Made by a program: the position numbers and the translations under genes. A stretch of 64,000 nt of DNA from a virus (taxonomy: Duplodnaviria > Caudoviricetes). Location of the stretch: the IMG/VR virus record IMGVR_UViG_3300042691_041259, positions 138,506 to 202,505 of that record, one strand, 5' to 3'. Under the pieces are notes generated by a model. The model did not search any database and had not been told where the DNA came from. It saw only the letters and a list, made by a program, of their open reading frames with translations. This document shows positions 10,084 through 33,442 of the stretch, one piece after another. Position 1 is the first letter of the stretch. The number at the start of each line of letters is the position of its first letter.

Positions 10084-10099
10084 TGATTGACTTTTAATG

Positions 10100-11193: not shown

Positions 11194-11217
11194 TTGTGTT
11201 TTCTTATTTTTCTCCGA

Positions 11218-11565
11218 TTATTCAAAATCGGGCAAAAAGCCAAGACTATTCATACAGTCTTGATTAAAGTATGCCTGTTGTGATCTTGGATATTTGTTAC
11301 TAAAAATAATTTTATCATCTTTAGCGACATCCAAAAAGTATACCCCTCCACCAATACCGGCTGTGATTGCCCATTCGGCGCCAGATCCACGTTCTTTTGC
11401 TACGTAAACATCCACTTGATCAAAGCGATTGTCATCGTCAAGCGTTTCTTCGCTTCTTTCCGCATCTCTGTCAAAGCTTATTCCACCAAGTCTTAATTGT
11501 TTTTCAATATCAAAAGGTAAATGCGCTTCGCCAACAAACGCCTCAAACGTTTTTAAGTGCTTCAT
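11218..11565 (-). CDS. Putative internal head protein with capsid-targeting-like N-terminus
   Basis: Begins MKHLKTFEAFVGE. Overlaps the amidoligase stop. Confidence 0.65.
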   Translation of the reverse strand: MKHLKTFEAFVGEAHLPFDIEKQLRLGGISFDRDAERSEETLDDDNRFDQVDVYVAKERGSGAEWAITAGIGGGVYFLDVAKDDKIIFSNKYPRSQQAYFNQDCMNSLGFLPDFE

Positions 11566-12965
11566 TTCTTTTCTTTCTTTTTATCTTTTTCCTTGGATTC
11601 ATCCTTGTAACTACCTGGAGATTCTACGGGTTCTTTCTCTTCAACAATCATGGTTTCTTTAGAAACATTGGCAAGTTTTCCAATCTCCCCGTTACGTATT
11701 ACCCCTCTCACGACTTGGCAATTAATGATATTTGACTTGTTTTCAATAAAGCAATCATTACAAGCATTTTCAACATGTAATGGAGATTCCACTATCTTTG
11801 AAAAGTCAACCGTGTTTCCTTTTGGAAATACGCTAAATCCAATACGGCTATTCTTAATTTTACAACCGTAAAAAGAACAACGATCCATAACACCTTCAAG
11901 TTCGCAATCAATTATTTCTAAATCGGTAAGCCTACAATTTTTTAATTTGGTGCTCTTTAATTGAAAACGACCAATTTCACTATCCAAATTAAACTCGCCT
12001 TTGGTCATACCGCCAGAAACAATAATTTCAAATAGTTTGTCTCTAAGATTGATCCAAACGCCTTCGAGTACATCATCATTGTCGTTCATATCTAATGTTA
12101 CCTTAATATCAGGGAACTCCTTTTTAAACGACGCATATTTTACAAAAGCTTGCGATATTTTATTTTGCTTTTCAATCATTTTCTTGAACTCTCGCACTTC
12201 CGATGACGTGAAATCCATGAAATTAAGAACAGAATGCATATGCGTAATAAAGTAAGAAACCAGATCTAAAATCTTCTTGGTTTTCTTTTCATAATCCGCG
12301 CCACCCATGTAACGATATTCCAAGTAGTTCTTTTCGAGTTTGAGGAAATTTACGCCATAATACTTTTCAAATGGAGTTTGGAAAGCATTTCTGCTGTAAA
12401 CTGTGCTATCTTTATTGATAAAGAAGGCTGACTTATTTGGAAGAATTTCTTTAATGCTTCGAGCATAAACAGAATCTCTTCTCTTTGGAAAAACTGAGTA
12501 CACGTTTTCTTCATCAAAAGAAAGAATGAACTTTAGAACATTCATATTTTTGATGTCAAATATGGTTGGAAGCTGAACATCGTCAATAGAAATGTTGACG
12601 TGAATGGAGCATCTTTCCGTGGTGTACCCATTATTGCTAATCCATTCCAGCACTTTAATAATGACATTCCGGGCTTCTGTATATTTCATTGGCCCAGTCA
12701 CTAATTCGCACATAGTCTTTCCACCGGAATAGTCCGGTTCGAGCTTAAAAATCTCATCGGTTGGTGCTACTGGAGAGTGGTACAGCGGTTTAGGTTCTTT
12801 AATATCGGAAAGGGCCATTGGAACAACAACCCGTTTCCCGATATATTTTGATATTGACCGCGCTGTCTCTAAATGGCCTTTCAAATTAGAATAGAATTCA
12901 AATTCTATCCCAATCTTTCCTGCCTCTAAAATTTCTGCAGGGCTATAGTTCTTCTTAATTTTCAT
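11562..12965 (-). CDS. Putative amidoligase (COOH-NH2 ligase type 2)
   Basis: GIEFEF, ELVTGP, CSIHVNIS, KYYGVNF and LEYRYMGG motifs in the family order. Confidence 0.8.
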   Translation of the reverse strand: MKIKKNYSPAEILEAGKIGIEFEFYSNLKGHLETARSISKYIGKRVVVPMALSDIKEPKPLYHSPVAPTDEIFKLEPDYSGGKTMCELVTGPMKYTEARNVIIKVLEWISNNGYTTERCSIHVNISIDDVQLPTIFDIKNMNVLKFILSFDEENVYSVFPKRRDSVYARSIKEILPNKSAFFINKDSTVYSRNAFQTPFEKYYGVNFLKLEKNYLEYRYMGGADYEKKTKKILDLVSYFITHMHSVLNFMDFTSSEVREFKKMIEKQNKISQAFVKYASFKKEFPDIKVTLDMNDNDDVLEGVWINLRDKLFEIIVSGGMTKGEFNLDSEIGRFQLKSTKLKNCRLTDLEIIDCELEGVMDRCSFYGCKIKNSRIGFSVFPKGNTVDFSKIVESPLHVENACNDCFIENKSNIINCQVVRGVIRNGEIGKLANVSKETMIVEEKEPVESPGSYKDESKEKDKKKEKK

Positions 12966-12982
12966 TTAAACAGCTTTCTTTT

Positions 12983-12992
12983 TATATTTATC
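12983..12992 (-). promoter_or_regulatory. Late-promoter-like motif GATAAATATA
   Basis: Immediately upstream of the amidoligase. Recurs upstream of structural genes and resembles the T4 late TATAAATA box. Confidence 0.55.
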
Positions 12993-13006
12993 TCAGTATG
13001 AGTAAC

Positions 13007-14221
13007 TTATTCTTCGTTAGGGATTGTCAAAAAGATTTTATCATTGTGTACGCGTTCAACGGACACCATTACGTGGTCACCTACCGCGTAATTCTTCTTT
13101 TTGATTTTTATTTCTTTCTTGGAAATTAAGCCTACAATATCTTTCTGCAGCTTTACCAAAGTACCAAACGGCTGAATTGAAACAACTTCGCCACCTGTGA
13201 TCACTCCTAAATGTTTTTCTTTGAACTCTTCAAGCTCTTTCATACGAATGCTTGGATCTTCATCGGTAAGAATAATTTTCTTATCTGGCGTAATTTCTTT
13301 AATCCAGAATTGAACGGTATTTCCTGCCGAAAATACGCCACTCTTAAAGTCTTCCCGCATTTCAGGAGTCATTTTACTTGTATGTATAAGACCTGTGAAG
13401 ATCTCATTAAATTCTACAAATACACCAAACTTGGCAGTACCAGTGACTGTTCCTGTATATTTTTCTTCCAGGCTAAGGCTTTCAATTTTTGAAGGCAATA
13501 CGTGTGAAAGATATTTTTTGTGGCTGAATACAAATGTTCCAGCGTCTCTGAGGTAATCTTCCACCATTACGTATATTTCTTTGCCCAGCATTGAATCAAA
13601 GTCTCTTACAATATTAGCCGCTGCCAAAGAACCAGGTAAGAAACCTTCTATACCGGCAACGTTAACCAGGAATCCACCACCATTTCTGCTGATGATTTTT
13701 GCGGTGTACGCGCTGGTAGGCTTTTCAATTTGTTGGAAGAACTCAGAACGAATGCTTTGAGAATGTCCTTTGCTTAGAGAAGCTATTGTATAAGGCTTTA
13801 TGGTTTCAATTACCACTTTTTTGCCTTCAGCTCCAATAAATCCTGAAAAAGCGCCCTCGGTGTTTTTCATCCAGTCTACAAAAGACTCTTGATTCATACC
13901 AACAGTCTTAAAGTATGGCTTTTCTTTTTCCAATTGAATCACAGCGTCAATCATACCTGAAAGGGTAACTACCATTTCAGTGTCATTGATACTAACCACG
14001 GAAGTGATTGCGTGATATTCCCCAACTTTTGGTTCTTTTACGCCGCCAGCTGTGGATTTTTCATAGCGGAGATACATTTCTTCTGCACCGCTGTCATGTC
14101 TCCAAATCTTTACTCCATATTTCTTTAGGAGAACGGGATTTGGGATTCTTCTTGCTTGACGGTCTTCTGCTTCAAAAGCCGCCCAGTCAAAGTCGAGTGT
14201 TGTGTTATTTTTGATTTGCAT
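13007..14221 (-). CDS. Ribosomal protein S1-like, multi-S1-domain RNA-binding protein
   Basis: Four S1/OB repeats, e.g. GGGFLVNVAGIEGFLPGS, GTVTGTAKFGVFVEF...GLIHTSKM, GEVVSIQPFGTLVKL...GLISKKEI. Confidence 0.85.
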   Translation of the reverse strand: MQIKNNTTLDFDWAAFEAEDRQARRIPNPVLLKKYGVKIWRHDSGAEEMYLRYEKSTAGGVKEPKVGEYHAITSVVSINDTEMVVTLSGMIDAVIQLEKEKPYFKTVGMNQESFVDWMKNTEGAFSGFIGAEGKKVVIETIKPYTIASLSKGHSQSIRSEFFQQIEKPTSAYTAKIISRNGGGFLVNVAGIEGFLPGSLAAANIVRDFDSMLGKEIYVMVEDYLRDAGTFVFSHKKYLSHVLPSKIESLSLEEKYTGTVTGTAKFGVFVEFNEIFTGLIHTSKMTPEMREDFKSGVFSAGNTVQFWIKEITPDKKIILTDEDPSIRMKELEEFKEKHLGVITGGEVVSIQPFGTLVKLQKDIVGLISKKEIKIKKKNYAVGDHVMVSVERVHNDKIFLTIPNEE

Positions 14222-14251: not shown

Positions 14252-17200
14252 TTACGGAATTGCTTGATAGCCTGTAGCCGCCAAGTATGTGGAACCAAGT
14301 CCTGACTTTCTTTGAGCTGTTGCTACTAATTGGTCTAGCCAAATTACAAAAGGAACATTCTTATCGCTTAGGCCTTCCCAAGTTGGGAGTTTTTCGAGAG
14401 GCTTAGTCGGATGTAATTTTGTAAAGGCAAGCCTTGCCGGAGAAAAACTGCAGGCTAGTAGTTTTACAATCAATGGCGTATTGTTAAAAAGCAGAGGCAG
14501 CACTGAATTTAGCAAAGGCTCTAAAATAGGCTTAAACAGCTCCCAACTTACATCGTAAAAAGGCCCGTCCTTTCCAGGAAGACTGAGTTTTGGCGGAAAT
14601 TGGAAAAGCTCAATAATACTTAAAAACGGAAAGCTTCCTAACGCATTTATTGTGTTAATTAACGTAGAAACGCCGTCAAGCGCAGGATACACCGTTGATT
14701 CAAGAACTCCTCCTATAAAGCTTTTTATATCGCTACCTTTAATATCAGACAGACCAACGCCAAAGAGCGCTTTAACAATTAAAGAAACGGCAATTAGCTT
14801 CTGTACATTTTCTGAGGAAACGGCTTCATAAATTTTTGCCATGATAGTTGCTTTAATTGAATCAAAGGCTACTTGTGCGGCTTCTTTCATAAGAGTTTTA
14901 ATAAGAGACCCGGGTATCACAATTTGAGAAGGTAATCCAATCTTTCCTGGAAGTGGAACTTTAAACTTAAAAGGTATTTGCTTAACCATGTCAATAGTCT
15001 GCTTAAGCATATTGTAGCTTTCTGGATCGGGTATCACAAGTTCTGGAACCGCATCAAGCAAACCATTGATGGTGTTGTAAAACAATCTCTCCGCCGAAGG
15101 AAGATTTCCGCTAAGATCTAGTTCAAAAGACACTAGGTTTGCTATTTGTTCAAGCGGCAATGCATCAATAATAGAAGGCGCCGCTTTGAAAGCGCCTATC
15201 AGTACATATATGTATGGCGGAACTACCGGTAGCTGAATGTTTGTGTAACATGGAAATGGAAGAACCAGCGCGTCCACTGTTTTTGAGACAAACCCAAGAA
15301 TTTCAGGGTTTATCTTTTTAGCAGCTTCCTCTAAAGGTTTCTTTATCAGCTTTTTAATTATTTTTGCTCGCTCTCGCACTTTTTCATCTAGAGAAGTATC
15401 AAAAGACAGCCTAGATTCTAATTCGTCAATTTCTGCATCGATTTCTCTAAAAAATCTTTTCACATTAGGGGTATCAACTTGCTGCAGTACCTGCTCACGA
15501 AGCTTTTTCTTTATATTGATAGTAGGTATCCCAATTCCTAGAGCTTTAAGCAGCTCGCTTTGTAACTCCGCCGGTGCTGAAGTGACTGTATCAATTGCCT
15601 TATTGAGATTGTCCATAATTTCTCCTGGCCCTAAAGTTTTTAGCAACAACTTTTTATCATCTTTAGGAAATTTAATAGAATTTACTTTAATGCCATCTAT
15701 AGCTTTTACCGCACCAGCAAACACTTCTGTTAAAGCCGCTTCAATTTCTGCAGGATTTGGCGGTAGGCCTTCAAAAGCTTCCCTGATTTGTTGTCTCTTA
15801 GCACGTGCTGCCGCAGAATTGCCACCTATTGAAGGCGGATCCGGTATTTCCAATTGCGAATAAGAAGACTTAATCTTCTCTTTAAGCTTATCAATGATAT
15901 TTTTTCCGCTGTCTGGATTTCCAACATCGTTATTAGCATTGCCTACTAATAGTTTTCCTAATGGCGAAGACAGATTGATCTTGACTCCGCCTGGAGGCAA
16001 CAATATGTCTAATAAAGACTTTTCTTCAAGTGGATTGACTCCAGCCACCGTAGGGTGTGGTATTGAACATGGTCCTCGAGATGTCAACATAAATGTTGCA
16101 TCCCCCTTTTCATCAATAAACATAATAAACGGAGCTGGAATAAATCCAGCAAGAGCAATCCAAATAACAATTGTTCCTAAAGGAGTACTGATAGTTATGA
16201 TATGTTTCCAAAGAAGAGGCAGAGGTATGCTAATTAAAGGATCGGGTATCCCAAGAGCAAGCGTAGGTATGGCCGGTATTGGAGGTATTGGAAATTGAAT
16301 AGCCACTGGATAGTATCGAAAAAGCCTGACACTAAAATTGGTAGGATCCAATTCAGGTACCGGTAGCACACTTACCTTTTGCATTATTTTTGTGTACTCT
16401 TTCCAGTAACAGTTCTTAATAAATGTAGGACATCGGCCATCAGATGGTCTTTGACCTACTGGATCTGAACCCAATTTATCCTTGCATTCTTTCTCTAAAT
16501 TTGTAGAGTCACCTCCATCAACAGGGGCTCCAAGTTTTTTAGCTGTATTTTCAATGTTTGCTTGATTCTCTTCAACACAAATTTGACAGCTTTCCATTAA
16601 AGCATCTAGTGAAGCCAGTTCTTCTTGCAATTTTTCGTAATATGTGCGGGCAACAAATGATTTTCTAGAAAAATCGTCTATATTACTAATTGAATACAGT
16701 TGGATCAGATCGTCTAAAAACCCGCGGTTTTCAATGTTATCAAAGAAAACAAGCGCTGCTTCCCTTTTTGCTGCTTGGTCAATCGGGCCATTGATAAAAT
16801 TTGCATACGCAGCAGAGTTTTCAATGTCTTGAGCTTTTTGGATAACCTTTTCACGAGTTTTTTTATCTAGGTTTTCTAAAAAATCTTGTGCTATCTCATC
16901 ATTACTTTTCAAATCTTGAGAGGCTGCCGGAACCTGTATTATGACTTCCTCTTCCAGACCATTTTTTACCACTTTATTAACTGTTTCGCCTACAGGCTCT
17001 CCTCTATCATTAAACTGTGGCTTTGGCTGTGTGTAGCCTTGCTCTTGATATGTAAAGAAGTAGTCTATTCTTTTTGCTGAGAAGAACGGCTTCCATATGC
17101 CAACTTCAAAAAGACCTTGCCTATCTTTTACTAGGTTTTCTCCAGAATACTCTGGAACGTCAATGGGTATGATGTAATTCACTAGCGGTTCAGAAATGCC

Positions 17201-19123
17201 TGTGATTGTGTTAAGCTTTCCGCCTAATGATGTCCCCGTTCCTGATATGTATGACGGATTCCAGACTGTACTAGGTGTATTGATAGACTCTTGCCAAAGC
17301 TCTTGACAGCGCCCTCTAACATCATAATAAGAATCCGTTTCCGCGGTTATTTTAAGAATTCCCGGAGCTTTAATGCTCCATTGATTAAATTGCGTAGGTA
17401 AGTACCCTACCAAATTACTCAGTGGATTTGTGTCTATGTTTAGCCCCTGGCGAATTTGCTGGAGGTTTCCATTTGCAATATTGTTAAGTTCATCTTTAAA
17501 TCCATTAAATTGGGTTTCAACCGCAATTAGATTTTCATTTTCATCATTGATTGTTAATGTATAAATTCCTTGTCCTTCATAATTAAGATAAGTCAAAGCT
17601 TCCACCCCGCTAAGAAAATCTTCTGAATTAGTGTACACTCCATTTGTTAGGGATGAGTAATCAGTAGACTCTGCTATAACAGCGTCGCGATCTCTAATAA
17701 TCGCAATCAATTGATTATTGAAAAAATCTATGTAATCTTTTAGCCTATCAAAATACTGGATTGTTATCTTGTGTAAAATTGCATGCGAGTAGAACGCATA
17801 CCATTTATTACTTGCGTCTCCTTTCTGCGCTCCACATTTTTGCATCTGCTGAGAAAAAGCATCAATTTCAGAAAGAACTTCTTGAACTTTATTGAGCTCC
17901 CCTTCCTGTGAAGGAATTTCTACATTTGGATAATCCACTGCTACCGATCCATCTTCACCCACACTCGCAAACCCTGATATGTCGGCTGCTATTCCAGCAG
18001 CTCCAGCAGCCCCACTTTCATCACCATCTGTAGGAACTTTGCAAGTCTCGTCATGAATTTTTTGAATCTCTTCCTCCCTATACGCAGATGGCTTAGGTGT
18101 TACATCCGCACATTTATTGATAACCTTTCCTATTTGTGATGGATACGTATCCTCAGGGTCCGGCAAGCCTATTTGTGTTGTGACATTACTTACAGGGTCA
18201 GACAATCCTGCTTCTTGTGCTGCACCATTGTTTACAAGGTCAGGCAATCCTATTATGGATTGAACATTTAATTCTTTTATTTGCTTTTCATTTTCAAAAA
18301 AAGTTTGAGCCTCTTTTTCAATATCAACGTCCTTTACTAAGTTTACTCCAAGTATTTTAGTCTGCTCAAAAAATTCAACTTTGTCCTTTGCATTTTTCAG
18401 AGCATTTTTTACAGATGGCACTCCTAAAAATTGCTCTTTTGCGAGATTTTGCAGCTCTTCAAGTTCTTCTGGCCCAGATTCCGATAAGAGTTTTTTGTAT
18501 GTTACACCTGCCAAATTTTGCAAAGCCTCTTCAGCAGAACCAAATTTTGCATCGGGTGCCCATGCAAATGTTCCAATTCCTATTTTGAATCTTACGCCAA
18601 GCTCAATTGGACCAAACTTAAAACCTAGCACAGCATCAATAGTAGGTATTGTGATAGCTATTTTTAACTTTGAAAACGCGTTTAAATCAATTCCACTCAA
18701 ATCCATTACCTTTGTAATATCAATGTTTGGATTTTCTGTGATTTCAGTAATTTTGAATTTGCCAACCTTCTTTTCCGGATCCGTGATTTTTACATCATCA
18801 AAATTGACATCGCCATCGGGAAGGCTAAAAAGCGTTTCCACTAATTTTGTAAGCTGCGACATTTTTCCAAGAGGGTCAACTTTCCCAATAAATCGCTCTT
18901 CAATAGGAATTTCGGGATACTCGTTGTAGTCGCTGGATGTTACTGTTTGACTGAACAGATTTTCTATTTCTTTGGCTTTTTTGATGACCGCTTGTTTTGG
19001 AGCAAGCACGCCATCAGGCACGGCTTCGTTTAGAATCTTGTTTATTTCGTCAAGAAGCTCTTTTGCTTCTTTTGATTTTGATTCACAACATGTACAATTG
19101 ATACCGTGAATTTCACTCTTCAT
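14252..19123 (-). CDS. Large hypothetical virion protein (1,623 aa), probably baseplate hub/tail-associated
   Basis: Long ORF whose start overlaps the gp5-like stop. Coiled-coil middle; Pro/Ile/Leu-rich hydrophobic C-terminal half. No recognisable catalytic motif. Confidence 0.6.
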   Translation of the reverse strand: MKSEIHGINCTCCESKSKEAKELLDEINKILNEAVPDGVLAPKQAVIKKAKEIENLFSQTVTSSDYNEYPEIPIEERFIGKVDPLGKMSQLTKLVETLFSLPDGDVNFDDVKITDPEKKVGKFKITEITENPNIDITKVMDLSGIDLNAFSKLKIAITIPTIDAVLGFKFGPIELGVRFKIGIGTFAWAPDAKFGSAEEALQNLAGVTYKKLLSESGPEELEELQNLAKEQFLGVPSVKNALKNAKDKVEFFEQTKILGVNLVKDVDIEKEAQTFFENEKQIKELNVQSIIGLPDLVNNGAAQEAGLSDPVSNVTTQIGLPDPEDTYPSQIGKVINKCADVTPKPSAYREEEIQKIHDETCKVPTDGDESGAAGAAGIAADISGFASVGEDGSVAVDYPNVEIPSQEGELNKVQEVLSEIDAFSQQMQKCGAQKGDASNKWYAFYSHAILHKITIQYFDRLKDYIDFFNNQLIAIIRDRDAVIAESTDYSSLTNGVYTNSEDFLSGVEALTYLNYEGQGIYTLTINDENENLIAVETQFNGFKDELNNIANGNLQQIRQGLNIDTNPLSNLVGYLPTQFNQWSIKAPGILKITAETDSYYDVRGRCQELWQESINTPSTVWNPSYISGTGTSLGGKLNTITGISEPLVNYIIPIDVPEYSGENLVKDRQGLFEVGIWKPFFSAKRIDYFFTYQEQGYTQPKPQFNDRGEPVGETVNKVVKNGLEEEVIIQVPAASQDLKSNDEIAQDFLENLDKKTREKVIQKAQDIENSAAYANFINGPIDQAAKREAALVFFDNIENRGFLDDLIQLYSISNIDDFSRKSFVARTYYEKLQEELASLDALMESCQICVEENQANIENTAKKLGAPVDGGDSTNLEKECKDKLGSDPVGQRPSDGRCPTFIKNCYWKEYTKIMQKVSVLPVPELDPTNFSVRLFRYYPVAIQFPIPPIPAIPTLALGIPDPLISIPLPLLWKHIITISTPLGTIVIWIALAGFIPAPFIMFIDEKGDATFMLTSRGPCSIPHPTVAGVNPLEEKSLLDILLPPGGVKINLSSPLGKLLVGNANNDVGNPDSGKNIIDKLKEKIKSSYSQLEIPDPPSIGGNSAAARAKRQQIREAFEGLPPNPAEIEAALTEVFAGAVKAIDGIKVNSIKFPKDDKKLLLKTLGPGEIMDNLNKAIDTVTSAPAELQSELLKALGIGIPTINIKKKLREQVLQQVDTPNVKRFFREIDAEIDELESRLSFDTSLDEKVRERAKIIKKLIKKPLEEAAKKINPEILGFVSKTVDALVLPFPCYTNIQLPVVPPYIYVLIGAFKAAPSIIDALPLEQIANLVSFELDLSGNLPSAERLFYNTINGLLDAVPELVIPDPESYNMLKQTIDMVKQIPFKFKVPLPGKIGLPSQIVIPGSLIKTLMKEAAQVAFDSIKATIMAKIYEAVSSENVQKLIAVSLIVKALFGVGLSDIKGSDIKSFIGGVLESTVYPALDGVSTLINTINALGSFPFLSIIELFQFPPKLSLPGKDGPFYDVSWELFKPILEPLLNSVLPLLFNNTPLIVKLLACSFSPARLAFTKLHPTKPLEKLPTWEGLSDKNVPFVIWLDQLVATAQRKSGLGSTYLAATGYQAIP

Positions 19124-19887
19124 TATTGAGATAGTTTAACATTCTTTGACGTAGAAAGCTGCTCAAAAGAAGACGCAGCGCCAGTCATTATACCAGGCGT
19201 TGAAGGCAATTTTGCATCAATAGCGCCTGCCATCATTTTTAAAAAGGTCCATAAAGGCTCTGCCAATACACCAGAATAAACTGGCGCAGGCCCGAGTTTG
19301 GTGGCGGCGGTTCCATTCATCGCAACTTCTGAAGATTCCCCTTTTATTAGAGAATTTGAAGTAATGTTAATTGTGCTATTTGCTGTGATATTGATGGTTG
19401 TACCAACAAGCTCAATTATACTTTGGCTATCTTTATGTTCAATAGTTATACTGCTATCTGGATTGATTGTAATATGAGAATCTTTGTGAAAGATTTCCAT
19501 ACCATTACCAGGAGTGTAGTAGACTTTTAATTGCTCATCCTCATCGTATGCAAGCACATGACTATTAAGATAGGTGTCACTAATATCAGATTGCATAGCC
19601 CGGTTAATTGTCTGAATACCATAGTATTCGGGAGAATACAGATTGCCTTCAGAAAATTGGACTCTTACAATTGCGCCGATTTTTGGAATGGAAAGACTTC
19701 CAAATCCGCCAGGGCCACCTGCAAATACAGTGTTCGTTACTGGGAAAGCCCAAGGAACGTTTTCGTCTTCTACATCATCAAAAAGACTGAAGACTTTGAT
19801 TTTGCATCTGCCTAATTTTTCGGGATCATTATTGTCAACGACTGGGCCTACCCAAATTCTGTCTCTTAGTTCTGCTTTTGTTGCCAT
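19123..19887 (-). CDS. Baseplate central spike, gp5/gpV-like OB-fold protein
   Basis: GPVVDNNDPEKLGRCKIKV...PWAFP and P-x-IG-x-x-V-x-V-x-F-x-x-GN-x-x-x-P-x-Y-x-G motifs, then a short beta-helix-like tail. No lysozyme domain. Confidence 0.85.
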   Translation of the reverse strand: MATKAELRDRIWVGPVVDNNDPEKLGRCKIKVFSLFDDVEDENVPWAFPVTNTVFAGGPGGFGSLSIPKIGAIVRVQFSEGNLYSPEYYGIQTINRAMQSDISDTYLNSHVLAYDEDEQLKVYYTPGNGMEIFHKDSHITINPDSSITIEHKDSQSIIELVGTTINITANSTINITSNSLIKGESSEVAMNGTAATKLGPAPVYSGVLAEPLWTFLKMMAGAIDAKLPSTPGIMTGAASSFEQLSTSKNVKLSQ

Positions 19888-19892: not shown

Positions 19893-22742
19893 TTATTTAT
19901 CGGTGTTTGTAGGTGGTGCTTCTTGTGAAGAATTACCCAGAGATCCGGGTGTTTCAATGTTTATATTTGGACCATTTAGACCAGTGCTTTTTTCGTTTAT
20001 GACATCATTTTGTTGAGGCGCCTTTTGATCTACCTTGCCAATTTCTGTATAGTTTGTAATTTCAAGGTCTTTTGAAGGCGTGCTCATAATAACCTTTCCA
20101 AGAGGCTGTTTTAAGATTCTTTCACCTTCTAGTTCTGTCTTACCAAGTTCTGGATTATCACTATTTACAGGAGCCCCCAACAGTATTACCGGATTAAGAT
20201 ATTTATCTATAGTTTCTGGCCCAACGAGCGGTTCTGTTCCAAGTATTTTTTCTGGAATAGAAGGCCCTTCAAGCGGAACTGCTCCAAAATCTGGAGTTAA
20301 ACCAAAATTGCCTTCTCTTGCAATTTCAGGTGATGGCGGTGCTTCTAAATTAACGCTTGTTGGTCTAGTATTACTTAGAGTTGGAGCTGTGAGATTCACG
20401 GGATCTGGTATAACATTAGAAACCGCCGGCGCTTCTAATTCAGTCTTGGAAACTACGCTCTTTGGAACTGGAGCCCCCGTAAGCTCAGCATTAGCTGGCA
20501 TATCCTTACTTGGCTCGGCACCTTCCAGATCAACTTCATTTGCTGCCAGATTTTTTTGAATTTTAGGACCGTCCAAAGAAACATTGCCACCCGTTCCATC
20601 CATGCTAGCCCCACCGTCCTCAAATGAAACATTTGTTGCAGAAGCCGAAGCAACTGGTGGAGCATTTAGATCTACTACTTTTACTGTGATTGGCGTAGTT
20701 GGAACAGAAGTCAAATCCACATTAGTGACTTGATTTGGAGCAACTGGTGGAGCATTTAGATCTACTACTTTTACTGTGATTGGCGTAGTTGGAACAGAAG
20801 TCAAATCCACATTAGTGACTTGATTTGGAGCAACTGGTGGAGCTTGCAGATCTACCGAATCGACCCTTCCAGTTTCTGATGGCGGAGCTTGTAAATCTGT
20901 TTGGCCAGGCGGCGAATCTATAATTGCTGGACCTTGAAGATCAACAGCCGTTCCAGTTAAGCCATTGATTTGCGGTTCTACCAGAATAACGCTAGTTGAG
21001 GATGGCGGTCCTAATATAGGGCCTTCCAACGCTACTACTTTATCTGGTGAAGGGCTTATTAAAGGTTCTTCCAATGAAACAGTTGTAGAAGACGCTGAAC
21101 CTGCTGGAGGAGCCGCCAACTCTACAGATCCTGCTGGACTATCACTTACGGCTGCCCCTTCAAAAGGAACATTAGTGGCAGTCGGCGCACCTACTGGAGC
21201 GGATTCAAATGGAACCGTTTCCGGAGCTGCTGGACTTGTAGAAGGCGCTATAAAAACTACAGTACCGCCACCTTCTGATATTGGAGGAGCCACTAAATCT
21301 TGTACCGCTGGCGACACCGGTCCTTCTGTTGTTGCTCCATTACTTTCCAGAGCAATATTTGTCAATAGGCTTTCAATAAATGGTGGAGCTTCTAATTGAA
21401 CTTGTTGCGCAATTGCTTGCGCAACTTCTGGAGGAAACGAATCCGCAAACGCGTTTCCAAGAAGAACTCCAGCAACTGCGCCTTGAACGGCATCGCTAAG
21501 CTGCGCGGTTGCAATAGTTGAAACGGTTCCAAGAAGTCCTCCAAGAATTCCGTTTAGCCGGGTATTTTCTTCTCTTAACTGGTTTTGATGTACAGTTTGT
21601 TGCGAGTTGTTAAACACCTCATTTTTTATACCCGATATGTAGCCAATTTCTCTTGAAGGTACACCTCTATCAGCAGGATCCCAAAAATATGATTCTACCC
21701 GATCTTGATTTCGATCAAGCAGCCCTTGTGTATCTTTCAATATCGCTCCCAGAAGACCATAAGTGTTTCTCTCACGAATAATAGGCGTCTTTATCACAAA
21801 TTTGTTTGTAGCTTCTTTATCGGGAAACTTTCCAAGAGCTCCAAAATATGTAGGTGCCTCTTCAAACATATCAAATTCACAGTGTGCAAATTCAAAAACT
21901 AAAAATGTAGCAAGCTCATCAAAATCCTTCATAAGAATAGGATAGTTGGAGTAGTTTCCGGGATCCCTTTGAAGAGTGCTAATAAGCGCATTACTTAAGC
22001 CTGACGCCCACTGTGTATTTGGGACTTGTGCGCTCACCGCACTTTGTATGCCTCTTTCCCCCAAGCCGGGTATGTCTATATTCCCAATTGGTGGAGCCTG
22101 TATTGGATTTTGAAAATTTGCAGCATCTTGAGTTATGTTAGGATCGTTAGTCGCAGGCAATGCATCCGCTGGTCTTTGCATGGAACGTATCTCAGTAATC
22201 ACCAGTTCCATCTCAAACTTTCTTAAATTTTCAGGAAGCATCCACCGCATATACACCGAGTCATAACATGCTTTTCTGTATAAATCTATCAAATAAGTCA
22301 TTTTTAAATCAATAGATTCAAGAGTTTCAAATGTCAATTTCTTGTCCTTTCCACGAAAACTTTCTGCTGGATTGATTTTCCAAATGTCTTCTAGACCAGA
22401 AACTTTAGTAATAAACCAAGGCATTCTTTGAATGTTTTGAATACCTTCTATAAATTCTCTGAGCATTTGAGCTCGGGTATATTCTCCTATGTTTTTAAGG
22501 TACTTTATTGCTGAATCTGGATGATCCTCATTGTAAAATAAGCCGCCTGGCCAAGTATCAAAATCGCCCGTCACATCTTTATATGGAAGCTGATTAAGAT
22601 CTTTGAATCTTACATAAAACCCAATGTAAGTAGGATCTTCATAATCCTTGAACTTATTTGGACGCGTAGTTGCGTACTCATTTCTCCAAGAAGGAGAACT
22701 GTATTGTAAGAACTTTCTGGTGACCGAGTCGGTAAATTGCAT
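19893..22742 (-). CDS. Baseplate/tail-tube-junction-like protein with a long 15-aa repeat C-terminal tail
   Basis: N-terminal LTFETLESIDLKMTYLIDLYRK segment resembles the tube-fold gp48/gp54/gp19 pattern (tentative). About 28 V-x-L-x-[AG]-P repeats follow. Baseplate gene context. Confidence 0.5.
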   Translation of the reverse strand: MQFTDSVTRKFLQYSSPSWRNEYATTRPNKFKDYEDPTYIGFYVRFKDLNQLPYKDVTGDFDTWPGGLFYNEDHPDSAIKYLKNIGEYTRAQMLREFIEGIQNIQRMPWFITKVSGLEDIWKINPAESFRGKDKKLTFETLESIDLKMTYLIDLYRKACYDSVYMRWMLPENLRKFEMELVITEIRSMQRPADALPATNDPNITQDAANFQNPIQAPPIGNIDIPGLGERGIQSAVSAQVPNTQWASGLSNALISTLQRDPGNYSNYPILMKDFDELATFLVFEFAHCEFDMFEEAPTYFGALGKFPDKEATNKFVIKTPIIRERNTYGLLGAILKDTQGLLDRNQDRVESYFWDPADRGVPSREIGYISGIKNEVFNNSQQTVHQNQLREENTRLNGILGGLLGTVSTIATAQLSDAVQGAVAGVLLGNAFADSFPPEVAQAIAQQVQLEAPPFIESLLTNIALESNGATTEGPVSPAVQDLVAPPISEGGGTVVFIAPSTSPAAPETVPFESAPVGAPTATNVPFEGAAVSDSPAGSVELAAPPAGSASSTTVSLEEPLISPSPDKVVALEGPILGPPSSTSVILVEPQINGLTGTAVDLQGPAIIDSPPGQTDLQAPPSETGRVDSVDLQAPPVAPNQVTNVDLTSVPTTPITVKVVDLNAPPVAPNQVTNVDLTSVPTTPITVKVVDLNAPPVASASATNVSFEDGGASMDGTGGNVSLDGPKIQKNLAANEVDLEGAEPSKDMPANAELTGAPVPKSVVSKTELEAPAVSNVIPDPVNLTAPTLSNTRPTSVNLEAPPSPEIAREGNFGLTPDFGAVPLEGPSIPEKILGTEPLVGPETIDKYLNPVILLGAPVNSDNPELGKTELEGERILKQPLGKVIMSTPSKDLEITNYTEIGKVDQKAPQQNDVINEKSTGLNGPNINIETPGSLGNSSQEAPPTNTDK
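20649..20843. repeat. Exact 90-bp tandem duplication (about 2.2 copies)
   Basis: AGCAACTGGTGGAGC begins at 20649, 20739 and 20829; the intervening 90-nt blocks are identical. Confidence 0.95.
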
Positions 22743-22757: not shown

Positions 22758-24275
22758 TTATATTGGGGTTGGCCATTCTCTACGAGTAAGAACCATAGTT
22801 TGTGTAAAACCAGGAGATTCGCCAGCATTTATGTCTGACGAAACTGTTTTGCTTTGTGGACTATAATTTATTCTCATGCCGGAAACCATGTAGTAGCCGC
22901 TATAAAATTTATCAGGAAGCATTGGCGGATACGCAGCAGAAACGTTCCCAGCCTCGGGCGGCGTTGCTACTGTTTGGTATCGCAAATCTCCACCTACAAA
23001 AATAATCAATGGCAGTCTTTCTCCTCTATAGATATTAAAGTTTCCATTCTCGAGTTGCGCTTCCACATACATTTTTTGAAGTTCCGCATTGTTTCTTAAG
23101 TTCCAATTTTTTGCAAAATTGTATTTTTGATGACAGTTTCCTTCAGGAGCAGAGTATTGTATGCCTTCCCAGCGATATCGATTTTGTGTTTTCCAATACT
23201 CTTCTTTAGGTGCACCAGGTTTTGTAGCCCGCCCTTTAAGTATTATTTTGTCAGCTTCCGCTCCATCGGTAGTAAGCGGATCCGTAAATAGTGACCAATA
23301 TTGTTCCGAGTTTTGTTCAAAAAACATTGTGTATGTTTTGTATCCATGCTCTTGGTTTACTACATTACTGGCATTTTTCATGTTAAAATAATGAATATAC
23401 GCCGAGGTGCCTTTAAGATCTTCCCAATTTGACAGCATCTTAGGAACTTCGCCCGTCGCCTTTTCCAGCGTTTTTCCCATAAGCTCTGCATTTATAGAGT
23501 CGTTAAATTTCAAATTTGTCAGCAATTGCATATCAAGATCCGTGCTTTCATTAAATTGGTTATTGACGTTTACAAAATTTAAGTTGTAGTAAAGATCAAT
23601 AAACACGTTAAAGAAACTTTTTTCATCTTTCCATGCGTGATCCGCAATATCGTTAATTAAATTGTAGTAGTCGCCTCCTGGGTTAATCCACACTTGGCTG
23701 TCATCAGTTTCTGTATCATTGGAAGCAAACCCTAGCTGCAATTCTTTTGCAATTTCTTTTAGTACTTCATAGCTTGTTCCCTTGTAAGATTTGATGATCT
23801 CATCATATAAATGTGGAACAAAAAGTTCTCCGCTAATTGTAAAAACTGCATTGCGGCCTTCCTGGTTACCATCGGTAGAACGTACACTAGTTATACGGTA
23901 ATCATTTCTAATAGGCTTAAATGCATTATTTCTAGCCCTGATAAAGACTGACATAATGTCGCCATCTTTAGGTATTGCTTGAGAGGTAAACGTTTTTGAT
24001 TTTACGCCAGCCTTCATTCTTACTGTTGGAATAAAAGAATTGCAATTTATCTCAAACGTTTCAATTTCAGTGTTAGCAAATATGTAATTGTTAATACTTA
24101 CAAATGGATAATTTGTACCAAGATCTTTACTTTGTTGAATACTTTTGTCATAGCCTGCTAGACCAGCTTCTGTGGATTGCTCACTCGTACCTGTGTCTAG
24201 ATCTCCGATTGACATTGTGTCCAGCGGAATTGCTGGATCTACTAAAGATCTTATGATGGATTTTTCCTGCTGCAT
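22758..24275 (-). CDS. Baseplate hub protein, gp27/GPD-like
   Basis: SYKGTSYEVLKEIAKELQLG...YNLINDIADHA...FNVFIDLYYNLNFV and C-terminal SGYYMVSGMRINY...QTMVLTRREW pattern. Lies between the gp53-like and gp5-like genes. Confidence 0.65.
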   Translation of the reverse strand: MQQEKSIIRSLVDPAIPLDTMSIGDLDTGTSEQSTEAGLAGYDKSIQQSKDLGTNYPFVSINNYIFANTEIETFEINCNSFIPTVRMKAGVKSKTFTSQAIPKDGDIMSVFIRARNNAFKPIRNDYRITSVRSTDGNQEGRNAVFTISGELFVPHLYDEIIKSYKGTSYEVLKEIAKELQLGFASNDTETDDSQVWINPGGDYYNLINDIADHAWKDEKSFFNVFIDLYYNLNFVNVNNQFNESTDLDMQLLTNLKFNDSINAELMGKTLEKATGEVPKMLSNWEDLKGTSAYIHYFNMKNASNVVNQEHGYKTYTMFFEQNSEQYWSLFTDPLTTDGAEADKIILKGRATKPGAPKEEYWKTQNRYRWEGIQYSAPEGNCHQKYNFAKNWNLRNNAELQKMYVEAQLENGNFNIYRGERLPLIIFVGGDLRYQTVATPPEAGNVSAAYPPMLPDKFYSGYYMVSGMRINYSPQSKTVSSDINAGESPGFTQTMVLTRREWPTPI

Positions 24276-24280
24276 ATACT

Positions 24281-24892
24281 TTATCTGTTAATACGGTTCT
24301 TAATAAGTTTTGCCAAAAATTCGCTTTTAGTTAGCGGCTCCTCACATTCGTTTCCATTTTTGCTTACGTTAGGACCAAAGAAGATTTTGCCCCCTTTGAT
24401 TTCAATTTCCTTGTCTCCAATATTTGCAAAATTTGGAGGTAGCGCTGGAGCGGTTTTAGAAGGATCTGCTGCTTTTGGCTTATCTCTCTTGTCATATTTT
24501 CCAAGATTTGGATCAAGACTGGAAGCCTTTCCAGGATCAATATATTGACTACGAATGTCTTGCTTTTGTTTTTGGTTTCCTGCTGTAGAAGACATATTCA
24601 TATTTGCATTCATCAAATCAGGAACATATAACAAGTCTCCGGTATCAATTGTAAACGGATTGCTAATGCCGTTCATTTTAAGCATTTTCTCAGAATGATT
24701 TAATGAGCCTAAAGTAATTTGCGAAATTAAATCAATTCTCATCTCAGTTTCGTCGTTCACTAATATGTAATTTGTGAACAATATGGGAGTAGTTATATTG
24801 ACAGACGCTTGCGTCAAATCAACAATATCGTCACCATTTTCCAATCGAATGATTGGTTTTTTGTCAATTGTTGCGGGAAGTTCTATTGGCAT
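24281..24892 (-). CDS. Baseplate wedge protein, gp53-like (LysM)
   Basis: MRIDLISQITLGSLNHSEKMLKMNGISNPFTIDTGDLLYVP is the gp53/LysM signature. Confidence 0.8.
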   Translation of the reverse strand: MPIELPATIDKKPIIRLENGDDIVDLTQASVNITTPILFTNYILVNDETEMRIDLISQITLGSLNHSEKMLKMNGISNPFTIDTGDLLYVPDLMNANMNMSSTAGNQKQKQDIRSQYIDPGKASSLDPNLGKYDKRDKPKAADPSKTAPALPPNFANIGDKEIEIKGGKIFFGPNVSKNGNECEEPLTKSEFLAKLIKNRINR

Positions 24893-24894
24893 TG

Positions 24895-27105
24895 TTATGC
24901 TATACTCTTTTTATTATATCCTAATCCGGTTTTGGCAGCAAATTCAGAGTAAACTTTCTTTGCACCAGTAATTGCGGCATTTGCTCCACGATCCGCATCA
25001 GTAGGGTCTCCAAAGAGAATACCTCTGCGTGTTCTATTTCCGTTTGGCGTAGGGCTACCAGTTCCGGTAGAGCCTTCTCCGTTTCTACCAAGAGTATTAT
25101 TGTACCCGCCACCAGGACCGTATCCTCCGCCTGCCCCTACATTACCATTACTATTGCTACTGCCGCCTGTAAACGGATCCACGTTTGATTGCGATGATGA
25201 AGACCATGTTTTTTCATATCCGGGAGGCAGAGAATAAAGTCGGCCACCACCGCCATTAAACATAGATTCAATAGCGTCACGATCCCGAGGCCTTCCGTGT
25301 TCTAGGGATATTGTGGCTTTAAGTTCTGTAGGAAAGTCGTCAGGGCCTAGCTCATCACTAAATTCAAATTTGCATCCAGTGCAGATTAAATTTCCTATCA
25401 TCATCATCGGATTGAAAGGGTTTCCCACGGTTAAGTGCCATTCACCGGTTGGCTCTCCTGTAAGAATTGCTTTAATACCCGACGCAAATCCACCTTTTTG
25501 AGTTGTATTTTTCATATGGAGTTGCATACCTCCAGCCGCTAATCCTTTAAGCGCCTCAATAGGATCTTCCATCGCTGCGTTAAGAAAGTCGGAAATTGCG
25601 CCGGCTGCTTTTTCAAATTGGCTCGCAACCGTTTCTAAGAATCCTCCCACATCCCCTCTCATCCAAGCAGCACGGCCAGCAGGCCCGCCAAGAAAAGGAG
25701 CCGTATTTCCAGGAGCTCCTGGGCGAAAGCGGTTAGAACCTCCCCAAAATGTTGCGGTGGCGGTTGTAAGCATCATTAAGTTAGACATTATATCTAGCAT
25801 TGCTGCTTTGGTGTTTATGCCACCAATACTTCGAGCACTGTATTCAAAAACCAAATCAATTTTGTGAGTAAATTTCAATCCGCGCTCTCGGGCTTTAACA
25901 CTATCTATCACATTAACGTGACCTATGATTTTGTTATTCCAAGGGCCATCTTCATACGGATCTGGCGGCGCTTGCCCATTAGTTGCATTTTTTGTCTGAC
26001 CGTAGTCTCCGGATACTAATCCTAAAAAAGATGCGATACCGGGAAACGGACCCCCACCTTCTACGTCTCCAGGACTGCCTGGCGTAACCACATTAACTTG
26101 TGCTGTAAGGTCCTTCCATTTTAGACCGGTTTCAATCGGTCCAAGAATTGTGGATATCTTGTTTCCAGTAGTTTCTCCTAACCAGGTAACGGCTTGCGCA
26201 ATTGGTCTTAGAGTTTCTGGAGTATAACCCGAAGTATTTCGTGGGTTGTTTTCGCCTTCCGCTTCTAGGTTATCTGATGTTGGAAACGGAAATCTTCTCA
26301 ATGTAATTAGGTAATTGTTTGGAACCAGGTTCCAGTATTTGCAATATGCAAAATCTTGAAAGCGATACGGCTTTTTATTTACATTGTCAGGCTCCTGGCT
26401 CCATGCTACAATTTCAGTGACAGATGGAGATTTGTAACGATGCAGTCTTTGTTGATTTGCCTGGTCCACCTCATACCATCGAGGCTGATTTTCCTGGTCC
26501 ATCAATTTTGCTAAATAATCTTGATCTTTTGAACCTTTGAATTGCTGGAAACCAATGTAAGCGTTTGGATTCATCAGTGCGGGAACGCCTCTAAATTGCT
26601 CGACCCCTGGTCGCTTTTCAATATCCTCTTCAGGTAGATTCTGAGCAGATACAAGTGCCCCGGTTTGCTGAGTGTCTGCAGCATCTTGCGGAAAAACAAA
26701 ACCTTCAACTAGCGGCTTAGCCTCTTCCGCGCTAAAGCTATATACCAATTTCTCTGAGGCATTACTGTAAATCAATCGAGGATCAGTTGGAATAAGAGTT
26801 AACGCCCCAGGTGTTTGACCAGATCCATCATTGGTTATTCCTCCCAATGCTTGTGGCGTTTCAGACACTGGTTGATACCCAGAAACGTTTTCAGTTAAAA
26901 AGTCAATTGCCAAAAACTCGTTTTCAATCAGACGATAGCCATCTGGCGGAAAAAGCAGTTTGTCTGCCTCAAAAATTGCTGGATCCGTTGATCTGTAATA
27001 AACGGATTCACCTTCGCGTCTCACAAATGTAAACGGCTTTGAAGAAAGGTTTACAGCCGTATTTGCTGCGTTGATAGCATCTGTTAACGTACTAAAATTA
27101 GGCAT
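24895..27105 (-). CDS. Baseplate tail-tube cap/initiator-like protein (gp48/CIS tube fold)
   Basis: RERGLKFTHKIDLVFEY and WHLTVGNPFNPMMMIGNLICTGCKFEFSDELGPDDFPTELKATISLEHGRPRD segments resemble tube-fold baseplate proteins. Confidence 0.55.
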   Translation of the reverse strand: MPNFSTLTDAINAANTAVNLSSKPFTFVRREGESVYYRSTDPAIFEADKLLFPPDGYRLIENEFLAIDFLTENVSGYQPVSETPQALGGITNDGSGQTPGALTLIPTDPRLIYSNASEKLVYSFSAEEAKPLVEGFVFPQDAADTQQTGALVSAQNLPEEDIEKRPGVEQFRGVPALMNPNAYIGFQQFKGSKDQDYLAKLMDQENQPRWYEVDQANQQRLHRYKSPSVTEIVAWSQEPDNVNKKPYRFQDFAYCKYWNLVPNNYLITLRRFPFPTSDNLEAEGENNPRNTSGYTPETLRPIAQAVTWLGETTGNKISTILGPIETGLKWKDLTAQVNVVTPGSPGDVEGGGPFPGIASFLGLVSGDYGQTKNATNGQAPPDPYEDGPWNNKIIGHVNVIDSVKARERGLKFTHKIDLVFEYSARSIGGINTKAAMLDIMSNLMMLTTATATFWGGSNRFRPGAPGNTAPFLGGPAGRAAWMRGDVGGFLETVASQFEKAAGAISDFLNAAMEDPIEALKGLAAGGMQLHMKNTTQKGGFASGIKAILTGEPTGEWHLTVGNPFNPMMMIGNLICTGCKFEFSDELGPDDFPTELKATISLEHGRPRDRDAIESMFNGGGGRLYSLPPGYEKTWSSSSQSNVDPFTGGSSNSNGNVGAGGGYGPGGGYNNTLGRNGEGSTGTGSPTPNGNRTRRGILFGDPTDADRGANAAITGAKKVYSEFAAKTGLGYNKKSIA

Positions 27106-30064: not shown

Positions 30065-30090
30065 TTATATTCGCTCATAGAAAAAAGTTT
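30065..30090 (-). promoter_or_regulatory. Bipartite promoter-like motif AAAC-N14-GAATATAA
   Basis: One of eight copies, all upstream of minus-strand starts. Confidence 0.7.
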
Positions 30091-30094
30091 TTTG

Positions 30095-30140
30095 CAAAAA
30101 AAGAAAGCCCCCGATGATAGCGAGTCCCGGGGGCTTAGTA
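30095..30140 (-). terminator. Intrinsic terminator
   Basis: AAGCCCCCG...CGGGGGCTT stem followed by a T-run on the minus strand. Confidence 0.75.
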
Positions 30141-30176
30141 GTTTTGCAACTACAACGGTCCTAAGTCCGTATATTT

Positions 30177-31322
30177 TTATTTATTGACTTTCTTCCACTT
30201 CTCAAGTCCACGAATAACACCGTTATTGTCTTGAGCCCAGATTCCGAATCTCGCATTTTCGAAACCAAAAGTTCCTCCTTGTCCGGATCTCATTGAAACG
30301 TATAAAGCTGGCCAATACGGATCCGATTGCTTAAGTTCTAGACTACCACCTGTGATAGCAGGGTTATACATTGCGTGCCCGGTAGGCTTTATGGAATACC
30401 CGTTTTCAAAAGGCTCCCCAGCAGGAATAAATTCAATTGCACCTTGCATGACAACCTGAACGTTATCAGCGGACCACTCTTTATTGCTAGTGGTTGCTAG
30501 GTTTCCAAAGATTGCACGAATTCCAAGATCTATGTGTTCTGGCGGTATTACCACAGCAAATTCGTTCTCTGGCCAATTCTTAGCGTTGCTCCCAAATTTT
30601 TCCATGATTGCGTTTAAGAAATCTCTCACAAATGGATGATCTGCGCATTGGCTAATCCCGCCATACTGCTGAAAGTCTTTTGCACTCTTTCCATCTTTAT
30701 GAGATATGTAGATTGAAGGATCGCCTTTGATTTCCAATATAAAGTCCGCCTTTGGAACGCCTGACACTTTATCAGCCCCTTCCATTTCAACTTCACGCAG
30801 ACCAGATGAATTATACATTTCGCCTTTTACAACAAGCCTAACAGATTCATTAGGTCCCTTGAGCTTGTCAAATTGACTTTGAATGTTTTGAAGAGCAATC
30901 GTCTCTTTTTTAAGTGAGTCTTTAGGTGACCAAAAAATTGCTTCAGGCTTGTAACCCATAAGGAATGCCACAAAGCAGATTGCTTTTTCGAATTTGTTTG
31001 TTGCGTCCTCTCCGTTTTTCAAGGCTTCCATTTCAGCGTTTAAATCTTTTCCGCTTTTTGGAAATTCTTCTAGACGGCTACCATCTTTACTGCTTCTAAT
31101 TTTGATAGTTGTCGGGTAAACGGTTACGTAGGCTTCACCACTCAAAACGGCTTTTGCTCCTGGGGAAGAGAAATTCTCCCCAGTTACAATAACCTTTTCG
31201 ATGTTCTTGGTATCGCCGCTATACTTGAAGTCTTCGAAAGATCTTCTCAAGGTCTCGCCGTCAACACCTTCGTTTAGAATTGATTCATTAAGAATAAAAC
31301 TTTTGTAGTCTAGCAAGCCCAT
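30177..31322 (-). CDS. Putative PD-(D/E)xK-like nuclease with capsid-targeting-like N-terminus
   Basis: PKADF-x9-ISHKDG...FQQYGGIS resembles a restriction-endonuclease-fold active site. N-terminus LDYKSFILNESILNE. Confidence 0.5.
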   Translation of the reverse strand: MGLLDYKSFILNESILNEGVDGETLRRSFEDFKYSGDTKNIEKVIVTGENFSSPGAKAVLSGEAYVTVYPTTIKIRSSKDGSRLEEFPKSGKDLNAEMEALKNGEDATNKFEKAICFVAFLMGYKPEAIFWSPKDSLKKETIALQNIQSQFDKLKGPNESVRLVVKGEMYNSSGLREVEMEGADKVSGVPKADFILEIKGDPSIYISHKDGKSAKDFQQYGGISQCADHPFVRDFLNAIMEKFGSNAKNWPENEFAVVIPPEHIDLGIRAIFGNLATTSNKEWSADNVQVVMQGAIEFIPAGEPFENGYSIKPTGHAMYNPAITGGSLELKQSDPYWPALYVSMRSGQGGTFGFENARFGIWAQDNNGVIRGLEKWKKVNK

Positions 31323-31385
31323 TCTGTGTACTTTTCTTTTTCTTTTTATGGTTATTTTATCACAATATTGTTAATGACTCTATGA

Positions 31386-31604
31386 TCACTCTATGATTAA
31401 CTCCGGTCCGCCGATGTACTCGGTAATACCGGATTTTGCAACGGAACGAATTTCATAGTCAAAAGTGGTTCCGCGGAAGCGGTCACGCACCTTTGCTTGG
31501 GATTCCTCAATTGTTTCTGCATTTACGAGGTATGTCTCAGTAACGCTACGGAGTTTTCCGTCGTCCTCATAACTTGTCTTTACTCTTACTGTCCAATGTG
31601 CCAT
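31386..31604 (-). CDS. DUF4494-like protein
   Basis: W-x-V-x-V-(x)n-VTETYLVNAETIEESQAKV...YEIRSVAKSGITEYI matches the Bacteroidota DUF4494 pattern. Confidence 0.7.
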   Translation of the reverse strand: MAHWTVRVKTSYEDDGKLRSVTETYLVNAETIEESQAKVRDRFRGTTFDYEIRSVAKSGITEYIGGPELIIE

Positions 31605-31624
31605 ATATGATTGTTTTAGTGTTG

Positions 31625-31635
31625 CTATATTTATC
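31625..31635 (-). promoter_or_regulatory. Late-promoter-like motif GATAAATATAG
   Basis: Upstream of the DUF4494-like gene, overlapping the end of the PAP2 gene. Confidence 0.5.
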
Positions 31636-33436: not shown

Positions 33437-33442
33437 GAAATT

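Follow-up and report, generated by a model that had tools for sequence, protein, structure and literature searches.

The 64,000-nt stretch of virus DNA analysed here (the window) carries a gene, P0001, at positions 19893..22742 on the minus strand, and its 949-residue translated product comprises a tube-fold domain, a helical linker and a long C-terminal array of 15-residue units. The reading that we favour, with a probability of about 0.45, is that the product is a tube initiator of the gp54 class and that its array serves as a docking tail, extended and multivalent, where tube and baseplate join, rather than as a ruler. The protein adds a new and highly divergent member to the tube initiators, a known structural class usually treated as compact adaptor rings. 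The multiplication of a C-terminal docking motif into a periodic array, reaching up to ~50 copies at a fixed minimum pitch within the family, is apparently an unusual and undescribed addition to that class; a literature text search for tube initiators that carry repeats at the C-terminus returned no description of one.

The window belongs to an IMG/VR virus record of 202.5 kb that is estimated to be 66% complete (G000 below; other L and G numbers denote related loci and records). A tblastn search with the N-terminal 200 residues matched Lak megaphages, the Tenacibaculum phages PTm1, PTm5 and pT24, and phage PAU, and the genome that hosts the gene is probably that of an uncultured jumbo myovirus of this kind. 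HMMER, run with residues 1-460 against 1.84 billion cluster representatives, retrieved 1362 relatives at E <= 1e-3, and among the 150 listed the lengths range from 320 to 1231 aa. The family therefore exceeds 1000 sequence clusters, mostly from jumbo phages; it is widespread and includes cultured members suited to experiments, such as PAU (gp255) and PTm1 (ORF235). The closest relative, in locus L005, is 71% identical to the target overall. Sequence searches of Pfam, PHROG and the PDB with the target, its family and the repeat region returned nothing usable, and hhalign of the family with T4 gp27 and gp48 gave no signal.

The 15-residue array and the terminal motif of the family

The original prediction, made from the letters of the window, had placed about 28 tandem 15-residue repeats at 20070-21401, which corresponds to residues 448-891. 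The repeats are real. In a BLOSUM62 autocorrelation of residues 448-949 the score is positive solely at lags 15, 30, 45 and 60; at lag 15 it reaches +0.32 against -0.68 +/- 0.10 for 1000 shuffles (z = 9.9), and z = 8.7 is retained when two recent duplicate copies (residues 645-704) are left out. The same test detects no 15-residue periodicity in the N-terminal 447 residues (-0.93). The five units that had been quoted are all present, VQLEAPPFIESLLTN at residue 448, VPFESAPVGAPTATN at 510, VELAAPPAGSASSTT at 540, VDLQGPAIIDSPPGQ at 600 and VNLTAPTLSNTRPTS at 782, and the count of 28 is a fair one, with 26 clean units in register and ~28-33 when degenerate units are included.

The 26 units in register form the regular part of the array (residues 448-883; 20094..21401, minus strand), which is acidic and rich in proline. 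Their consensus reads V-x-L-[E/T/Q]-[A/G]-P-P-[V/I]-x4-[P/V/L]-[T/G]-[N/S]; position 3 is occupied by L or F in every one of the 26 and position 1 by V in 21. The array extends past the predicted endpoint at 20070 down to the C-terminus. This degenerate end (residues 884-949; 19896..20093, minus strand) closes with PGSLGNSSQEAPPTNTDK, a decayed copy of the LGN motif found at the end of other family members, and no globular domain lies distal to it. A flexible stalk, which had been offered as the alternative to a ruler, therefore falls short in one respect, in that nothing sits at the stalk's end. The extension as a whole contains 13.7% proline and few aromatic residues and carries a net charge of -40. 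Sites of the T4-type prohead protease (L-x-E) were considered within the units and dropped, because the register is V-x-L-E and the E is unconserved in relatives.

A recent duplication of a two-unit block (30 aa, 90 bp) is recognized by Tandem Repeats Finder at 20649..20855 on the minus strand as 2.3 copies with 97% identity. Since this is the only repeat that survives at the DNA level, most of the units must be old. The closest relative lacks ~29 residues precisely at this block, and the indels that separate the target from its relatives are unit-sized steps. Compared with the closest relative, the array is 64% identical with a dN/dS of ~0.14 (dS being saturated), and the N-terminal domain is 84% identical with a dN/dS of 0.05. 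The array is under purifying selection. The full-length AlphaFold2 model gives it a pLDDT of 29-63 and places one strand of 4-6 residues in each unit of the most regular part; it yields no confident fold for the array and does not predict it to be helical. A sequence search of solved structures with the repeat region found no match.

Comparison with the family indicates where the unit comes from. Most of the members longer than 560 aa among the 150 listed representatives are extended at the C-terminus by a stretch whose best period is 14-16 residues and whose unit sequences differ between lineages; a few have a period of 17 or 21, or double units of 28-33 residues. Short members (~390-470 aa) have one to five LGNVY-like copies, the last often at the very C-terminus. 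When the patterns G[N/K]-hydrophobic-x-[L/F/Y/I] or G[N/K/D][V/I/A][Y/F] are scored in 200 distinct members, 80 have the motif within their last 12 residues, as compared with 1.9 on average and at most 6 in shuffled tails. Among the 443 spacings from one copy to the next, peaks occur at 15 (75 cases), 16 (36), 23 (37), 30-32 (57) and 45 (11) residues, and only 6 spacings are shorter than 15. Two copies, an internal YLGNVY and a terminal one, are found in each of PAU gp255 and PTm1 ORF235.

In the target the first copy is LLGNAF (residues 427-432; window 21447-21464), which lies within the linker at a site where the family consensus is LGNVY and Gly429 is nearly invariant. The units of the target read (T/G)(N/S)-V-x-L, and the C-terminal residues are ...NLGNVDLE in the relative L007 and ...RIGNADLQAP in L006. 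From these three observations we conclude that each 15-residue unit consists, by its sequence, of an internal copy of the terminal motif of the family, LG[N/K]-hydrophobic-x-[L/F/Y], and a spacer. The number of copies ranges across the family from 0 to ~50 units. A search of the genome's remaining proteins, the tape-measure candidates among them, found neither the LGN motif nor a 15-residue period. Sharing of the motif by the C-terminus of the neighbouring spike protein was considered and rejected, as the spike ends show a different pattern.

The tube fold and the position of the gene

In the AlphaFold2 model of residues 1-460 (built from 82 sequences) the blocks 40-190 and 280-340 are mostly predicted at pLDDT >90. 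The tube-protein fold of the gp19/Hcp type spans residues 33-339 (21726..22646, minus strand), interrupted by a poorly predicted insertion of 88 residues (191-278; 21909-22172, minus strand), and is followed by a Gly/Ala-rich linker (residues 340-447; 21402..21725, minus strand) whose helices are modelled at pLDDT 40-68. An exhaustive structural comparison with VIA-align places only tail-tube, tube-initiator or tube-terminator and Hcp proteins in its higher-scoring rows. Foldseek alone is weak (E ~0.3), and its top rows are still tube or gp54 chains. On the strength of the model, the N-terminal part certainly has the tail-tube fold.

The best structural match is 9f4a_BQ, the gp54 homologue of Klebsiella phage KP1 (Z 11.4, rmsd 3.1 Å, 156 residues aligned), followed by the T4 baseplate-tube chain 5iv5_BG (Z 11.1), which is aligned over its residues 2-254. 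Ordinary tube proteins score lower, with Z 10.2 for the phi-kp24 tube (PDB 8BFK), 9.3 for the phiKZ tube (gp30, PDB 9XPF) and 8.9 for T4 gp19. The margin of the gp54 type is only ~1 Z, and for this reason the gp54 assignment leans also on the position of the gene. The target shares the core fold with the jumbo-phage tubes and T4 gp19; in contrast to them, it is ~5 times longer and is encoded in a hub module, and its genome has a tube gene of its own. With T4 gp54 and the KP1 homologue (PDB 5IV5 and 9F4A) it shares, besides the fold, a gene location with the hub and spike genes and apart from those of sheath and tube, and T4 gp54 also has a C-terminal tail, which is Gly/Ser-rich. The insertion, the helical linker of ~100 residues and the motif array of ~500 residues set the target apart from both. 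Classical gp54 tails lack the LGN motif as well; the 'VLGNS' of T4 gp54 was considered as a link between the families and rejected, since other classical gp54 tails do not contain it.

The position of the gene was read from 80 related loci fetched from IMG/VR, wherever these cover the region. In all covering loci the order is a 736-aa protein, a 203-aa protein, a 505-aa protein, the target, a gp5-like spike and a variable ORF, after which come an S1-domain protein, an amidoligase, a 243-aa protein, a ~120-aa protein and a gp6-like wedge. The spike gene (19123..19887, minus strand) codes for a gp5-like central spike of 254 aa with an OB domain and a beta-helix (PF04717, E 2.9e-8; PHROG baseplate/hub families), and it directly follows the target in every related locus that extends past the target. 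The same holds for PTm1, where a gp5-like 'baseplate protein' comes directly after the 401-aa ORF235. Upstream of the target, the three genes of conserved order occupy 22758..27105 on the minus strand. For two of them the protein atlas offers leads only, Phage_GPD/GpP for the hub-like 505-aa protein and, weakly, PF11091 (T4_tail_cap) for the 736-aa protein, a lead to the gp48 'tail tube cap'; the HMM and profile searches confirmed neither the hub nor the cap identity.

The genome's own tube gene (G000 38155-38718) codes for 187 aa, has a weak PHROG tail-tube match and lies beside the sheath gene (1316 aa; PHROG tail sheath, E 8e-99), ~120 kb from the target. PF06841 and phrog_45 ('tail tube') were not found in the genome. 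The original label of a tube-junction-like protein holds because the target is part of the hub/spike module and the genuine tube gene is found beside the sheath gene; it is borne out by position and by the gp54-type best match in fold, and is not supported by sequence. We also note that the sheath protein (G000 38760-42710, locus L085, outside the window) is about twice the size of T4 gp18, and that its match to the sheath family is confined to the last ~340 residues.

The proposed docking tail and its alternatives

In the mechanism that we propose, the target would form the ring at which the tail tube starts, atop the baseplate hub. Its C-terminal half would be an expanded array of the family docking motif, here (T/G)(N/S)-V-x-L-x-(A/G)-P-P, rather than a separate domain, with ~30 copies at a strict 15-residue pitch gained by duplications of one unit or two. 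The array would be extended, each unit consisting of one short beta-strand peg and a proline-rich spacer. We infer that each peg docks by strand addition on a repeating partner at the junction of tube, sheath and baseplate, so that six chains would act as multivalent tethers along the baseplate-proximal tail and anchor, stabilise or nucleate it. Such an array could be expanded or dispensed with, and the length of the tail would be set by a separate tape-measure candidate, a 2234-aa ORF discussed below.

The docking-peptide reading is suggested by a motif that is pinned to the C-terminus, has conserved hydrophobic positions at i and i+2 followed by glycine or proline, and is joined to the next copy by a spacer that varies freely in sequence but is no shorter than ~15 residues, features that are typical of strand-adding peptides. 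Fifteen extended residues span ~46-51 Å, and a contractile tail rises by ~38-41 Å per ring. The rise is 37.7 Å in phiKZ (PMC13250141). The six chains would begin at the ring that brings together tube, hub, inner baseplate and the first rings of the sheath. In Goslar, the last two layers of the sheath encircle the two-layer initiator (bioRxiv 10.64898/2026.04.21.720040), and in T4 a loop at the N-terminus of gp48 is inserted between gp53 and the sheath's first layer (bioRxiv 10.64898/2026.03.06.709160). A multivalent tether is preferred because of the docking-peptide features, the expected origin at the initiator ring and a 15-residue reach just over the ring rise.

A more specific form of the docking tail can be drawn, a tail component not described before, in which six 'stitching' chains would leave the initiator ring and each would place one beta-strand peg per ring on the tube or the inner sheath over the baseplate-proximal rings. 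The minimum spacing of ~15 residues would then be set by the ~40 Å rise, and the chains would tune the stability of the tail or the trigger of contraction, not its length. We hold this form to be unlikely. The docking tail in general retains the geometry of the earlier proposal, in which one unit may reach from ring to ring (motif copies are almost never closer than 15 residues), and gives up the length gauge.

Several observations weigh against the initiator with a docking tail. No sequence-level homology to classical gp54 is detected in PHROG, Pfam or hhalign, the last of which gives the family a probability <1% both with T4 gp54 and with an alignment of four gp54 members. The low AlphaFold confidence would be equally expected of plain disorder or of a fibre whose folding requires oligomerization. 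Half-units of 8+8 residues occur in some relatives, a poor fit to one peg per ring. Moreover, the units cover ~33 of the roughly 84 rings estimated for this phage (from the 2234-aa ORF, at 1.5 Å per residue and 40 Å per ring), and some relatives have none, so that any binding to the lattice would be partial and dispensable.

The most probable of the alternatives is a disordered, acidic and proline-rich tail that would work as an entropic bristle or as a spacer, either at the core of the baseplate or within the lumen of the tube, the period being a footprint of duplication with no periodic docking. The very low AlphaFold confidence throughout the array, the composition and charge of the extension, and a highly variable copy number that falls to zero in many relatives, which dispense with the array, are all consistent with it. 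In contrast, a bare spacer does not account for the invariant L/F at position 3 and the frequent V at position 1, for the same core motif and 14-16-residue pitch in lineages whose spacers are unrelated, for the motif pinned at the extreme C-terminus in 40% of the members, or for the dN/dS of ~0.14. The conserved core, the recurrent pitch, the C-terminal pinning and the dN/dS argue for a binding or structural motif, and we regard plain disorder as unlikely.

The tail could also lie in the tube lumen beside the tape measure and, on contraction, emerge at the tube tip while tethered to the initiator, with a part in crossing the periplasm or gating the exit of DNA. This is in conflict with the general observation that C-terminal additions to tube-fold proteins sit outside the tube, as the C-terminal Ig-like domains of siphophage tube proteins do. 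The tape-measure candidates have no such repeats, and the array has no transmembrane-like or lytic feature. A lumenal tail, which we consider rather less likely still than a disordered one, finds some support in a weak Tape_meas_lam_C match (E 0.0011) in one of 82 members, in the last ~66 residues of 5iv5_BG, which would be unmodelled if that chain is gp54 (320 aa), and in the distal tube end of T4, which remains in place once the hub has been released and both meets the membrane and binds the tape-measure protein (bioRxiv 10.64898/2026.03.06.709160).

A self-assembling fibrous shaft resembling a triple beta-spiral, with the six chains arranged as two groups of three or combined in one, is a still more doubtful explanation. 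The repeats of the adenovirus fibre shaft are hydrophobic, 15 residues long and variable in number from type to type (PMC7248032), and the array shares with it the period, a G/P turn beside a hydrophobic strand and a repeat number that varies among relatives; a strict pitch is moreover typical of fibres. The hydrophobic positions of the unit are 1, 3, 8 and (13), with G/A-P at positions 5-6, and only one of its strands is clearly hydrophobic. Unlike the shaft, the target lacks a head or registration domain at its C-terminus and has no sequence match to solved structures, and its N-terminal domain would be expected to form a six-fold ring. The irregular spacing of the motif copies in short relatives, 15-45 residues, is likewise not that of a shaft.

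Should the pegs of the docking tail bind the tail lattice, they would represent a new coupling of baseplate, tube and sheath, and the natural series of 0-50 units would allow the effect of that coupling on tail assembly and firing to be tested. Should they not dock, the array would still be a clear example of a short linear motif that became a long periodic protein.

The tape-measure position and the neighbouring genes

The original prediction had taken the array for a possible tail ruler, with one repeat per tube or sheath ring as a segmented gauge of length. The genome contains a separate candidate for this function. The sheath gene is followed by the tube gene, a conserved 315-aa gene, a 112-aa gene and the 2234-aa ORF (G000 30073-36777), which is thus beside a group of sheath, tube and chaperone-like genes and is a tape-measure candidate by gene position. 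Direct sequence search found homologues of tape measures in only 3 of 30 related records, and the gene position beside the tube was therefore used to find the corresponding ORFs. The tube gene was located in 18 of the 30 records and the DNA downstream could be read in 17, which gave an ORF at the tape-measure position for 16 relatives. With the length of this ORF as a proxy for tail length, 17 phages were compared.

In one clade (A) the ORFs at the tape-measure position are mutually homologous and 964-2234 aa long. In the other (B), characterized by a pair of tube paralogues, the ORFs measure 500-578 aa and match several PHROG tape-measure families (best E 3e-6). We also note that in the two-paralogue clade (L091-L097, L099-L101; G009-G015, G019, G020, G023) the tube paralogues of 184 and 191 aa are in tandem, and that its ORF at the tape-measure position is this short despite genomes that reach 250-430 kb.

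Across the 17 phages, the length of the target correlates with that of the ORF at the tape-measure position at r = -0.33. Repeat-free targets co-occur with ORFs of 964-1942 aa: G007 combines a 1942-aa ORF with a 466-aa target that has no repeats, and the 100% complete genomes G005 and G006 combine ORFs of 1119-1120 aa with repeat-free targets of 437-443 aa. The short ORFs of clade B are paired with 21-36 units, set against the ~19-22 rings estimated from them, and the own phage has ~33 units against the ~84 rings given above. Within the clades both lengths rise together (clade B, r = 0.84, n=11; clade A, rho = 0.89, n=6). The two slopes, 2.0 and 0.3 residues per residue, are inconsistent, and neither fits the value of ~0.5 that would follow if an extended ruler ran alongside a helical one. 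The number of lineages is small and they are not independent, with ~4 sub-lineages in clade B; shared ancestry may be the cause of the trend.

Like the tape measures T4 gp29 and lambda gpH, the target is long, non-globular and variable in length, would be located at the start of the tube, and has repeats that evolve by duplication. In contrast to these long, mostly alpha-helical proteins, its array is proline-rich and of beta-strand and coil character, its gene is not at the tape-measure position, and the array is absent in many relatives with long candidates, with whose length it does not scale. A search of the tape-measure candidates for a 15-residue period found none. A segmented ruler that sets tail length is thus very improbable: an extended 15-residue unit could span one ring and the within-clade co-variation would suit it, but every genome examined has a canonical candidate ruler and the family as a whole already contradicts the reading. 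That the array is the tail's length ruler is not supported; the annotation should not be adopted, and the tempting label of a 'second ruler' is removed as wrong.

The 1623-aa ORF directly after the spike gene (window 14252-19123, minus strand) has several long hydrophobic, proline-rich segments and no Pfam or PHROG match. The slot that it occupies is hypervariable, being filled in relatives by unrelated ORFs of 96-1687 aa, and homologues of the 1623-aa protein are found only in some lineages. It was considered as a tape measure and rejected on account of this variability.

Between the spike region and the gp6-like wedge (window 8383-14221; loci L005-L084) are located genes for an S1-domain protein (~400 aa), an amidoligase-like protein (~470 aa), the 243-aa protein and the ~120-aa protein. 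This four-gene set is present in most related loci that extend far enough, a recurrence which indicates that the phage copy of S1 is a fixed part of the baseplate block. Of the 36 homologues of the 736-aa protein (window 24895-27105; alignment A3), two contain intein/Hint domains (Intein_splicing, E 1e-12), pointing to the insertion of an intein into a gene of the baseplate. The gene for the gp6-like wedge is followed directly downstream by a giant ORF (window 3-8111, minus strand), in the position of a gp7-like or fibre gene, that amounts to 2820 aa in the full genome.

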